A stretch of 64,000 nucleotides of DNA. Origin: Escherichia phage VB-EcoM-WM. The translations under genes and the position numbers were made by a program. The notes beneath the pieces are model-generated. The model did no database searches, was not told the origin of the DNA, and saw only the letters and a list, made by a program, of their open reading frames with translations. How positions within the stretch are numbered: position 1 is the stretch's first letter; each line of letters starts with the position of its first letter. The stretch lies in the sequence record PQ014731.1. One strand, given 5' to 3'. This document shows, piece after piece, positions 38,057-40,720 of the stretch.

Positions 38057-38275
38057 TACCACGTTAATTAATCCATTTAGTGAAGATTTGAGGCCAGCAG
38101 CCTGGCGGAATGGATTCAATAACGAAAAATTTACTTTTAGGCCTGATCTTGAGGAATTTTATAACAATGGATCGAACAACGACAGAGATAACTTTTCTCG
38201 TAATGTGCGTGGCGATAATACTCCTGGGGGCCATTGTAAACCACGTCACTGCTAACAGGAGGAAAGGGGGAGACG

Positions 38276-38395
38276 ATGACAACCAAGGATAAGCCCAGCA
38301 CCGACAAGGCGCGCCGCGTTATGGTATGGCTTGAGATTATCGCCCTTGAAATATTGTTAGGCGTAGGGATGTATTTTATCGCCGTACGTACCTGA
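38276..38395 (+). CDS. small membrane peptide (39 aa)
   Basis: RBS AGGAGGAAAGGGGGAG; hydrophobic VMVWLEIIALEILLGVGMYFIAV; followed by terminator. Confidence 0.4.
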   Translation: MTTKDKPSTDKARRVMVWLEIIALEILLGVGMYFIAVRT

Positions 38396-38399
38396 TAAC

Positions 38400-38430
38400 G
38401 GCCCCCGATCCCTGGGGGCCTGACTTTTTT
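38400..38430 (+). terminator. rho-independent terminator
   Basis: GGCCCCC-GATCCCT-GGGGGCC then TTTTTT; followed by an A15 tract. Confidence 0.65.
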
Positions 38431-38462
38431 CAAAAAAAAAAAAAAATTTTTCTTCCGGGGTG

Positions 38463-38491
38463 TTGCAATCTGGTCCAGAATATGGATAATA
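38463..38491 (+). promoter_or_regulatory. sigma70-like promoter (paralogous to 39282)
   Basis: TTGCAA-17nt-ATAATA; spacer ...CCAGAATATGG almost identical to the promoter at 39282. Confidence 0.45.
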
Positions 38492-38549
38492 ACAATCAAC
38501 GGGGAGACACTCCCCACCACACAGACAAAGTTCCAAAAGGAGAAACAAA

Positions 38550-38750
38550 ATGAGCAACAATATCCGCGTTATTAACTTCAAAAAAGAAGAAAAAATAGCT
38601 GTGCTGGTTGATGGTCAAGAAATATTCAAAGGGTATTATGAGGATCATCAGGCGGCGATCAGTATTACCCGCGTAATTGGTTACCATAATTTTTACCCTC
38701 AAGGCGCTGAGGCAGCAGTAAAACGAATTAAGGAGATTGTAGGCCTGTAA
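38550..38750 (+). CDS. hypothetical protein (66 aa)
   Basis: RBS AAGGAGA upstream. Confidence 0.5.
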   Translation: MSNNIRVINFKKEEKIAVLVDGQEIFKGYYEDHQAAISITRVIGYHNFYPQGAEAAVKRIKEIVGL

Positions 38751-38762
38751 AATTTATTTTTA

Positions 38763-38810
38763 GATGGCCTTGACCCCAGGGCCATCAAATAAAGTAAATT
38801 TAAAACCTGT
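38763..38810. repeat. intergenic hairpin repeat element, copy 4
   Basis: AATTTATTTTTAGATGGCCTTGACCCCAGGGCCATCAAATAAAGTAAA. Confidence 0.7.
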
Positions 38811-38842
38811 TAAAATAATCAGTGCAAAAAGGAGAAATGATC

Positions 38843-39142
38843 ATGTTTATACCCGCCAATGATCTTTATTTCTTTGATGGTCAGATCGTAGACGGCGTGG
38901 AAGTTGAGATCGCTGGATGCAAAGGCGGCCAGGTAATGATCTTCCGCAATAGTGCCTTTAACGATCATTTTATTACAATGACTGTTGAAGTTAAAAAGCT
39001 GGATGATAAGAAAACACTCATTGACTATTCCGTGAAAGATCATCCAGACTACCACATGATCTGTGGTGATTTGTGCATTGTTGACCGTGACAAGGTGGGC
39101 GGCATTGTGATCGCTATTGTGAACGATGTTTTTTCTGAATAA
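38843..39142 (+). CDS. hypothetical protein
   Basis: ATG 38843 after RBS AAGGAGAAA. Confidence 0.5.
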   Translation: MFIPANDLYFFDGQIVDGVEVEIAGCKGGQVMIFRNSAFNDHFITMTVEVKKLDDKKTLIDYSVKDHPDYHMICGDLCIVDRDKVGGIVIAIVNDVFSE

Positions 39143-39281
39143 TTCCGGCAAATGATGCAAAATAAGGCCCATGGCAGGGCCTGCAGCGATATAATCATAC
39201 AAAGGCTATGCGGTTGCATGGCCTTTTTTATTTTAGCGCTACAGCGGCCCCCAAGGCGCTTAAAAAATTTTTAAAAAGTAC

Positions 39282-39310
39282 TTGCATCAAGTCCGACAAT
39301 ATGGATAATA
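39282..39310 (+). promoter_or_regulatory. sigma70-like promoter (paralogous to 38463)
   Basis: TTGCAT-17nt-ATAATA with spacer ...CCGACAATATGG. Confidence 0.45.
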
Positions 39311-39366
39311 GGACGTGTCAGGGGGGCGGCCCCCAATCATTAACCGGACAGATGGGAGTTAAAATC

Positions 39367-39651
39367 ATGGCTATTGTTACTGTTGGCGATGTAGTAGAAA
39401 TGGAAGCAAAATACTTGAAAGCGGGGATGCATATCCTACGCAACGATCTTGAACTAGTCCTGACAATGGTCGACTATAATCCCGGTCAGGATTATCCAAG
39501 CATTGACTACTTTTTTGAATATGTTGATGAAGAATTAAAAGAGGATGAGGCTTATCGGGGTGAATTTTGCAATTTCTTTTGCCCTGACGAGGTTGTAAAA
39601 GTTATCTATCAACCTGGCGTACCTTTCCCGTTGCACGCCATCAATAAATAA
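39367..39651 (+). CDS. hypothetical protein (94 aa)
   Basis: Track ORF 39208 overlaps terminator/promoter; ATG 39367 after RBS GGGAG. Confidence 0.5.
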   Translation: MAIVTVGDVVEMEAKYLKAGMHILRNDLELVLTMVDYNPGQDYPSIDYFFEYVDEELKEDEAYRGEFCNFFCPDEVVKVIYQPGVPFPLHAINK

Positions 39652-39776
39652 GCCTGGCGGGGCCGAAAAAGGCCCCTCCTGAAAATATGAAAAAATAAAG
39701 ATAGGTGGATCATCATGATGGAACAAATTAAACGCGCTGAGGCTATTAATGGCAATGATGCCACCAACATGACAGA

Positions 39777-40040
39777 ATGAAAAACATCATCTACAGATTG
39801 ACAAAACGCAACATTATGATCGCCACCGTGATCGCTTGCCTTTTCGCTTTCGTGAGTAACGCAACGTTTAACGCCGTGGGCGGGGTGGTGTTTAATGCTG
39901 GCAGCGTTTCAACAGCTAACACAATGATCGATTGTTTGCAACTTTTCTCTTATGTTGCCTTTCGTTTAAAAATAGCTTGCAAGGTAGACCGCTTTGATTT
40001 ACCTTTTATTTGTGGCGGCGTGATCGCTATCGTCTGGTAA
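39777..40040 (+). CDS. hypothetical membrane protein (87 aa)
   Basis: Hydrophobic segments. Confidence 0.4.
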   Translation: MKNIIYRLTKRNIMIATVIACLFAFVSNATFNAVGGVVFNAGSVSTANTMIDCLQLFSYVAFRLKIACKVDRFDLPFICGGVIAIVW

Positions 40041-40720
40041 AGTGTACGACATAGGGCGGGGCAATAAGGCAACGCCCATTAATAAGGGTGGAATCATGTT
40101 AGAAAAAATTTTCACGGTTGTAGTAGTTGGCCTGGCATTATCGGTTGGAGTGGTTGCAACTATGGCTAACATGATCCTATCTTCCCACGGTATCGGATAA
40201 TGTGAAACAAATGATCACGAACAAAACAGGAAAAACGGAATTTTTACGCAACTTACAGATCGGCAAACCTGAGATCTGGTATTGCACTAAAACACCACGT
40301 GACGAAATGAAAGATTTTACCGCCACGCTGAAGCGGGTAAAATATCCATTACGCAGAAAAAAGCCTTGATAGTGGTGGAAGGTGAGATCCCTCAAACCGT
40401 TGTCATAGTTGAGCGTACAGCATAGTTTAATCTATACCGTACTCCCCATTAACTAACAAAGCATAAGCAGGCGGCGGTGACCGCCTTGAACGCAACAGAA
40501 AGAGAATAGAAAACATGAGAAAGATAATTATTACCATGGGGATCGTGGCGGCAATGTTGGCGATCTTTCCCTTTATGGTTAGGTATGTGCTGATCAGTAT
40601 TGTCCTGATAGTCAGTGATCTATTGGAAACGGTTGGCACCTGGTTTTAAGATAATAAACAGGGCTTGCAATGGTCCTGTTTTTTGTTATACTTATCTCAC
40701 GGGTGGCACCTGGCGACGGG

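Follow-up and report, generated by a model that had tools for sequence, protein, structure and literature searches.

The closest described relatives of the locus analyzed here belong to the rV5-like phages, which rank among the commonest E. coli phage isolates (PMC8594841). The rV5 genome paper (Kropinski et al. 2013, PMC3606486) counts “88 mainly small ORFs” (open reading frames) in the corresponding part of that genome, and its Table S3 lists gp181 (39 amino acids), gp173, gp170 (44 amino acids), and gp145 (33 amino acids), each as “membrane protein, 1 TMD” (one transmembrane domain). We studied five very short ORFs, here called A to E, in a 64,000-nucleotide (nt) stretch of Escherichia phage VB-EcoM-WM (sequence record PQ014731.1), hereafter the window, together with A0, the annotated ORF that A overlaps. 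An earlier sequence-only reading had picked out A to D as examples from a cluster of short hydrophobic peptide genes and E as a similar one on the minus strand. A, B, C, and D lie where it placed them; the minus-strand ORF, E, also exists, one base off from the coordinates given for it.

38034..38255, + strand: A0, annotated ORF of 73 amino acids (81 in most relatives); rV5 gp182, phrog_12060
38151..38155, + strand: Shine-Dalgarno (SD)-like GAGGA for A, inside the coding frame of A0
38167..38292, + strand: A, 41 amino acids, MDRTTTEI followed by the transmembrane (TM) segment and NHVTANRRKGGDDDNQG; +1 frame relative to A0
38276..38395, + strand: B, 39 amino acids, with a basic N-terminal tail; FV3 ORF167, rV5 gp181, phrog_13629
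40096..40200, + strand: C, 34 amino acids; FV3ORF160, rV5 gp173, phrog_14631
40515..40649, + strand: D, 44 amino acids; FV3ORF157, rV5 gp170, phrog_16005
49356..49457, - strand: E, 33 amino acids; rV5 gp145, phrog_15151

The gene order of rV5 and FV3 is reproduced here (gp183-gp182-gp181-terminator, gp173..gp170, and gp144-gp145). The four rV5 genes named above and FV3 ORF167, ORF160, and ORF157 have the same order and the same or similar length as their counterparts in the window; rV5 gp173 was called with 46 amino acids, versus 34 for C. Four of the five ORFs (B, C, D, and E) are not new, being already annotated in rV5, FV3, and BASEL phages, and the rV5 and FV3 orthologs differ from them only by allelic variation. 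In contrast, A has no counterpart in those annotations, where gp182 corresponds to A0. Our main finding concerns this fifth ORF: on the evidence of its sequence, A is a real gene, one that annotations almost always miss; it starts at 38167 inside A0, and the tail of A0 over the overlap behaves like noncoding sequence at the amino acid level. What the analysis adds to existing annotation is thus the replacement of the A0 tail by A as the constrained product, together with a set of fusion variants.

Coding signature of the A0/A overlap

Matches to the region 37600-41200 occur in 242 phage records, almost all from Escherichia Vequintavirus (rV5-like myoviruses), the closest by identity being HMD-6 (97%), SYGMH1 (96%), and FV3 (94.5%); judged by these matches, the window is that of an rV5-like myovirus. 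No match to the A0/A/B DNA was found among E. coli genomes; therefore, the region is not prophage-borne. Conservation counts refer to GenBank phage records. These were used in place of IMG/VR, where a protein-anchored scan gave 3 loci and a conserved 17-mer gave 18, 16 of which were not on the two known rV5-like contigs and presumably matched by chance. For the coding test, substitutions were reconstructed on a neighbor-joining tree of 12 to 21 distinct relatives, and the excess of synonymous events was compared with the neutral expectation. The 21 distinct sequences available for the A0/A/B region are only 82 to 97% identical.

The coding signature changes from the A0 frame to the A frame at the ATG of A. 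Over 38034-38166, which holds the first ~44 codons of A0, 29 of 69 events are synonymous in the A0 frame (P = 2.8e-4), and the A frame shows no excess. Over 38167-38255, the A frame has 28 synonymous events out of 62 (P = 0.0014), while the A0 frame has 12 out of 65 (P = 0.9; 0.18 observed versus 0.25 expected). The pairwise ratio of nonsynonymous to synonymous differences (pN/pS) in this overlap is 0.43 in the A frame and 1.18 in the A0 frame. The sequence-only reading had let the cluster begin at 38110, an upstream ATG in the frame of A; since 38110-38166 carries no coding signature in that frame (pN/pS of 2.18, versus 0.47 in the A0 frame), 38167 is the likely start. As a control, we applied the test to 90-nt windows of 8 neighboring genes: P was below 0.0014 in each of the 40 in-frame windows, and off-frame it never fell under 0.01 (76 windows; minimum, 0.099). 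Thus, the frame of A acts like a weakly constrained coding frame and the tail of A0 like an off-frame one.

The replacements that A has accepted point the same way. In its core (residues 8 to 24), 23 of 23 stay apolar, with none to a charged residue, proline, or a stop (0.28 expected; P = 4.6e-4); read in the A0 frame, the same nucleotide changes give radical swaps such as C/R, G/R, and G/D. Hydrophobicity reaches at most 1.7 in 165 open +1-frame windows of control genes, versus 3.04 for A. The ORF overlaps the tail of A0, runs 17 nt into B, and is intact in 117 of the 118 records that carry the region and in 20 of the 21 distinct sequences. Its ATG is kept in 21/21, preceded by GAGGA in 18 and by AAGGA in the other 3. 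The stop codon of A0 shifts among genomes, lying either at 38253 or at an ATGA with B (73 or 81 amino acids). Viewed as an overprinted pair, A0/A therefore includes a second-frame ORF with its own start and SD that is intact across relatives, but purifying selection in the overlap is found in the frame of A only, not in both.

Alternatively, A may be no gene at all, its open +1 frame and substitution pattern being by-products of A0, the sole translated frame, or of chance among close genomes. Nearly all annotators, and the PHROG families, picked A0, whose frame is also open across the overlap to 38255 in 21/21 sequences; the P value of A is modest for sequences spanning just that range of identities, and a few variants truncate A. 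Yet over the overlap the A0 frame has fewer synonymous changes than expected, accumulates radical replacements, and ends at a moving stop. Moreover, no off-frame control window comes near the P value of A, no +1 control window is as hydrophobic, every core replacement is apolar, and RNA structure gives no signal that would explain the conservation of the A region (z = 0.65). We therefore consider it distinctly unlikely that A is no gene. Some observations nevertheless count against A as a gene of its own. Its signal is far below that of ordinary genes (P = 1.4e-3 versus a median of 5e-12), its SD spacer is long (12 nt), rare variants cut its ORF, and in phage pangalan a 1-nt insertion changes its tail, though only the tail. 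In addition, the conserved GGDDD at its end results from the SD and start codon of B being read in the frame of A, so that only the N terminus and the membrane segment speak for A itself.

Annotation of A is correspondingly rare. In a collection of 15 billion proteins, it forms four singleton clusters, namely, the protein of GenBank phage Gotham (QLF82679.1), one Logan call, and two JGI calls made from the upstream ATG; the 90%-identity cluster of A0 alone has 235 members. A has no significant PHROG match (best E = 0.19, to an Rz-like spanin PHROG), and no homolog of either A0 or A was found outside Vequintavirus. In more than 100 deposited genomes, the A0 annotation (73 to 81 amino acids) thus probably holds no further than codon ~44; what is constrained over the next ~90 bases would be the 41-amino-acid membrane peptide A, for which the Gotham protein is the only GenBank annotation found.

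Two homopolymer runs within the overlap bear on how the two frames are related.

38193..38196, + strand: T run, T5 in most relatives; site of 1-nt deletions and a conceivable +1 slip site (TTT_T)
38226..38230, + strand: G5 run, where 1-nt deletions fuse A0(1-65) to the C-terminal tail of A in two single-contig variants

A search with A0 returned 85-amino-acid proteins on metagenome contigs, and their DNA carries a 1-nt deletion in the T run that joins A0(1-54) to the membrane segment and tail of A. One such fusion (P0079) occurs on 7 contigs; the two that were read stem from separate samples and include a 136.7-kb scaffold. Another (P0078) shows the same T-run event in a different sequence background, on one 128.7-kb contig. 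The recurrent P0079 fusion is probably real, and the forms seen on a single contig may be homopolymer errors. To judge from these variants, a product with the helix of A on the N-terminal part of A0 is tolerated.

These fusions raise the possibility that A is not made alone. Its membrane segment could instead be the C-terminal part of A0, reached by a +1 slip at TTT_T (38193-38196) to give a product of ~85 amino acids, with the ATG at 38167 being incidental. Natural deletions in the same T run give just such a product in two sequence backgrounds, tRNA-Phe can re-pair perfectly on UUU_U after the shift, and an SD-like GAGGA stands upstream, poorly spaced as an SD for A. In prfB, however, the SD-like element lies ~3 nt from the slip site, whereas here 37 nt separate the upstream GAGGA from the T run; nor would the ribosome be stalled by what comes next, which is TCT and not a stop or a rare codon. 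The change of coding signature falls on the ATG and so precedes the T run by 26 nt, residues 1 to 8 of A (MDRTT.EI) are conserved, and ATG and SD are kept in all 21 sequences. The fusions may be merely tolerated mutations or, where there is a single contig, errors. On balance, synthesis of the segment by slippage alone seems quite improbable. A combined scheme, in which the locus acts as a frame-choice device that yields the free 41-amino-acid peptide and, by a +1 slip at UUU_U, a membrane-anchored N-terminal domain of A0, also strikes us as improbable. If it were true, the T-run fusions in two lineages would demonstrate a function of the fused form and cooperation between A0 and A. In a softer version of this idea, A may have arisen de novo by overprinting a dispensable A0 tail within Vequintavirus. 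We retain the reading of A as a separately started gene in what follows.

Conservation of B to E and features of the set

In B, 39 of 64 events are synonymous (P = 5.6e-10) in its own frame, with no excess in the other two, and it is under strong purifying selection. Its TM segment, VWLEIIALEILLGVGMYFIAV, contains two Glu residues and is near invariant in the distinct sequences examined, despite 38 third-position changes; the sole change is a V-to-I replacement at its end, in FFH2. D is likewise under strong purifying selection, with 39 of 79 events synonymous in its own frame only (P = 1.7e-5). It matches 161 records, of which 121 are full-length and about 40 cover residues 1 to 24 only. The tail of D is mosaic, with at least three forms among phages, including an unannotated 63-amino-acid version in V18 with a basic hydrophilic C-terminal extension. 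AlphaFold2 predicts a single long helix for D (residues 2 to 43; predicted local distance difference test score [pLDDT] of 93), which speaks against a two-helix hairpin. The UniRef label “DUF3096” carried by one D variant was not reproduced by Pfam scans. In FV3 and most relatives, a 285-nt gene is found before D. It is absent here and in HMD-6 (40370-40514), so D stands alone here with a weak SD.

C exists as two alleles, both of 34 amino acids, which share 63% nucleotide and 50 to 53% amino acid identity (synonymous divergence pS of 0.64 and nonsynonymous divergence pN of 0.28). Changes among close relatives are few (P = 0.07). The C-terminal half, ATMxNxILSSxGIG, is conserved in both alleles, as are small residues at A14, S/G16, G18, A21, and A/S24. 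C is found in 150 records, including members of Vequintavirus, Justusliebigvirus, and Phapecoctavirus; in a more sensitive search, 39712-40752, which holds C and D, was the only stretch of the region also common to phi92-like Justusliebigvirus and phAPEC8-like Phapecoctavirus, at 83 to 90%. In DrSchubert, a viable phage of the BASEL collection, the C ortholog has an in-frame stop at codon 16 (LAL*VGV). The DrSchubert record annotates instead a 48-amino-acid ORF that ends at this stop. The ORF that follows C in the window (40202/40211..40369) is shorter than its 71-amino-acid FV3 homolog. For E, 117 records have a copy at ≥88% identity. Directly upstream of it, across a 9-nt gap, lies a RaiA/HPF-like gene (49467..49784, - strand) of the “sigma 54 modulation factor” type, a ribosome hibernation protein.

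Conservation in related phages, which the sequence-only reading had named as a check, is indeed observed: full-length copies of A, C, D, and E occur in 117, 150, 121, and 117 phage records, respectively, and the region carrying A and B occurs in 118. The short genes for hydrophobic single-helix peptides are thus conserved, with A, B, and D showing a synonymous excess in their own frames only, and the four plus-strand ORFs A to D show the evolutionary pattern of protein-coding sequence. B, C, D, and E have full-length matches to PHROG families, all four of unknown function (13629, E = 1.2e-30; 14631, E = 2.1e-22; 16005, E = 6.3e-30; and 15151, E = 6.4e-26, respectively).

A single predicted TM helix had been claimed for these ORFs, and there is indeed one hydrophobic stretch per peptide, the 17-residue Kyte-Doolittle mean peaking at 2.4 to 3.0. 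For A, C, and D, the free-energy term (dG) summed on the Hessa scale across 19 residues comes to -0.7 to -1.3. With ≤50 amino acids and one hydrophobic segment of bilayer length, A to E belong to the general class of small single-pass membrane proteins. The claim that they have good ribosome-binding sites holds in part. The sites are strong for B (AGGAGG..GGGGGAG) and E (GAGGTG, with a spacer of 6), moderate for A (GAGGA, with the 12-nt spacer) and C (GGGTGG), and weak for D in this window (AAGAG).

Such ORFs are far more frequent than expected. We counted ORFs of 25 to 60 codons with an SD motif 4 to 12 nt upstream and a 17-residue Kyte-Doolittle mean of ≥2.0, and found 18 in the whole window, where dinucleotide shuffles led us to expect 2.2 ± 1.5. 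The + strand of 38001-40700 accounts for 4 (expected, 0.02 ± 0.14), a number reached in 0/300 shuffles. At least nine small single-helix peptides are encoded on the sense strand of the window. Those beyond A to E are at 34479..34598 (+), 46150..46290 (-), 51638..51727 (-), and 53445..53564 (-). By size and position, the ORFs at 34479, 46150, and 53445 appear to be rV5 gp193, gp156, and gp131, each listed with “1 TMD”; the 29-amino-acid ORF at 51638..51727 has an annotation in PMBT16 alone, its place in rV5 being a gap without annotated genes. The ORFs at 34479, 46150, and 51638 are conserved in those relatives that cover them.

Probable transcription units and neighboring genes

The five ORFs are set among promoter and terminator sequences and other membrane protein genes.

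36438..36465, + strand: sigma-70 consensus promoter, TTGACA-N16-TATAAT (12/12); probable start of the unit ending after B
37631..37648, + strand: hairpin with a T-poor tail; rV5 t184 equivalent
37685..38056, + strand: 123-amino-acid membrane protein with 1 to 2 TM segments; rV5 gp183, phrog_13090; first in the run gp183-A0-A-B
38400..38430, + strand: strong intrinsic terminator, GGCCCCC..GGGGGCC plus a T run; rV5 t181 equivalent; closes the unit after B
39777..40040, + strand: 87-amino-acid membrane protein; FV3ORF161, phrog_17242; between the two small-peptide groups
40656..40690, + strand: terminator-like hairpin plus a T run, directly after D
49832..49860, - strand: sigma-70-type promoter, TTGACA-N17-TATCAT, upstream of the RaiA-like gene and E; rV5 P144 equivalent

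Sigma-70-type promoters are spread over the rV5 genome, and its Table S4 lists P185 as well as rho-independent terminators after gp184 (t184) and gp181 (t181) (PMC3606486). The promoter at 36438..36465 appears, from its position, to correspond to P185, and the hairpin at 37631..37648 is probably a leaky terminator ahead of the membrane protein genes. The pattern TTGACA-N17-TAnnnT occurs 20 times in the window, versus 0.96 expected, and all copies follow the local gene direction except two in the 4.5- to 4.7-kb switch region; by itself, this pattern amounts to a promoter map of the region. A second candidate, a shared promoter motif ATATGGATAAT at 38480 and 39299, was rejected because it is no commoner than chance. 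Given these sigma-70-type promoters and terminators, the peptides are probably transcribed by the unmodified host polymerase. The units would be gp183-A0-A-B-terminator, another containing C and D, and a third in which E stands behind the RaiA-like gene.

Several features of the surroundings were recorded in passing. An A15 run (38432..38446) lies between the terminator after B and a promoter-like site at 38463-38490. Near 39651-39780, a gene of 59 to 64 amino acids that precedes the 87-amino-acid membrane protein gene is reduced here to a 21-codon ORF. The ORF-poor stretch at ~41500-44000, between converging + and - gene blocks, corresponds in rV5 to a 2.6-kb box marked “non-coding” (104013-106618), a stretch that in PMBT16 is filled with numerous tiny ORFs. 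For the 123-amino-acid neighbor gp183, a deep HMMER search of 1.84 billion proteins returned 7 matches, the distant ones being repetitive proteins with meaningless Pfam matches, and so provided no functional context.

Candidate functions and known systems

The reading we favor, and to which we give moderate confidence, is that A to E are genuine genes, A replacing the tail of A0, and, by analogy, that their products are accessory single-pass inner-membrane peptides acting on membrane targets. According to this model, the peptides would be made from host RNA polymerase (sigma-70-type) promoters in short promoter-to-terminator units and would insert as single-pass peptides in the E. coli inner membrane, where the positive-inside rule predicts that B, C, D, and E have the N terminus inside and that A has the N terminus outside and the C terminus inside. 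They would act through helix-helix contacts with host or phage membrane proteins rather than enzymatically. Contact of this kind is suggested by the near-invariant segment of B with its two Glu residues and by the small-residue face kept by C, since sequence-specific constraint within a helix is expected of partner binding and not of a generic anchor. With C broken in the viable DrSchubert, the peptides look dispensable, and this stop together with the variable tail of D leads us to read them as accessory. They may therefore be conditionally useful factors, serving host takeover, the exclusion of other phages, or an interplay with membrane-associated defenses, and would be neither lytic nor structural. 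The sequence-only reading had suggested takeover or superinfection exclusion; this fits the setting, with sigma-70 units in a small-ORF region far from the lysin.

Several results pull the other way. Neither for translation nor for membrane location of any of A to E did we find evidence, and a literature search returned no transcriptome, ribosome profiling, or infected-cell proteome for rV5-like phages. A to E have no significant match in Pfam, NCBIfam, or named PHROG families. B and E carry Glu inside the hydrophobic segment, and their dG of about +2 makes predicted insertion marginal. With only 4 substitution events, E varies too little for the codon test. We rejected subthreshold matches to DUF6524, DUF7396, YbgT, YqzM, and the Rz-like spanin PHROG. 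No homology or experiment that ties a peptide to a known takeover or exclusion protein was found. In the sections considered, a PNAS 2026 paper on toxic early phage products deals with T5 pre-early genes and brings in Vequintaviruses only for daunorubicin sensitivity.

A different outcome at the membrane is also conceivable. The peptides could be membrane-damaging toxins that shut down the host by depolarizing the inner membrane without specific partners, in the manner of the type I toxins, a group that includes Hok/Gef, TisB, Ldr, Ibs, and ShoB. A to E resemble these in size and in having a single hydrophobic helix, the region is likely expressed early from host promoters, and some bacterial small membrane proteins, for example YohP, do depolarize membranes. 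However, A to E match no toxin family in Pfam or NCBIfam, lack a long regulatory leader, and, unlike type I toxins, lie inside ordinary SD-led operons of a lytic phage. Rfam and tRNA scans were negative and thus indicate neither an RNA gene nor a type I antitoxin; in 36000-44500, no antisense or small RNA was found at E ≤ 0.1, and there is no convincing antisense promoter. The near-invariant core of B and the small-residue face of C point to specific contacts rather than generic damage. We regard this as a possible but unlikely alternative to accessory peptides with specific targets.

The peptides might also be lysis control parts (holin, antiholin, or spanin-like) that work with the 123-amino-acid neighbor, which is labeled “putative holin” in BASEL genomes. 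This label rests on TM content only. A weakly matches the Rz-like spanin PHROG (E = 0.19), a nonsignificant match confined to the TM segment, and the A0/A overlap recalls lambda Rz/Rz1, an overlapping phage gene pair in which the second product lies in the +1 frame of the first. Like Rz1, A is a small, apparently membrane-targeted product in the +1 frame with its own SD and start inside another gene. Unlike Rz1, it has no lipoprotein signal (its motif is LVMC/LVVC, without a lipobox) and no lysis context, and it extends past A0 into B; moreover, the overlap is constrained only in the frame of A, the tail of A0 looking like a passenger. The rV5 lysin gp89 and proposed holin gp129 lie elsewhere, the lysin far away, and the annotations of three relatives show no endolysin within 12 kb. 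A role in lysis is therefore very improbable.

Under the favored reading, the set offers compact, testable candidates for phage factors that would act on the host inner membrane. As an annotation matter, it is an ordinary example of the known underannotation of small and overlapping genes; it leaves the understanding of such genes unchanged and amounts to a modest correction.

Two groups of known proteins are the natural comparisons for accessory membrane peptides. T4 Imm and Sp, P22 SieA, and HK97 gp15 are nonessential phage membrane proteins that mediate superinfection exclusion. A to E share with them the status of phage-encoded, apparently nonessential membrane proteins, but the exclusion proteins are larger and unrelated in sequence, and none of A to E nor the 123-amino-acid neighbor matched the exclusion families in Pfam and PHROG. 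The small bacterial membrane proteins AcrZ, MgrB, MgtS, KdpF, CydX, and YohP modulate larger membrane proteins and have no catalytic domain. A to E differ from these in being phage-encoded and in showing no sequence similarity to them (best Pfam match, YbgT_YccB, E = 0.45, for C), yet they are alike in kind, with ≤50 residues, one TM helix, and constraint concentrated in that helix.

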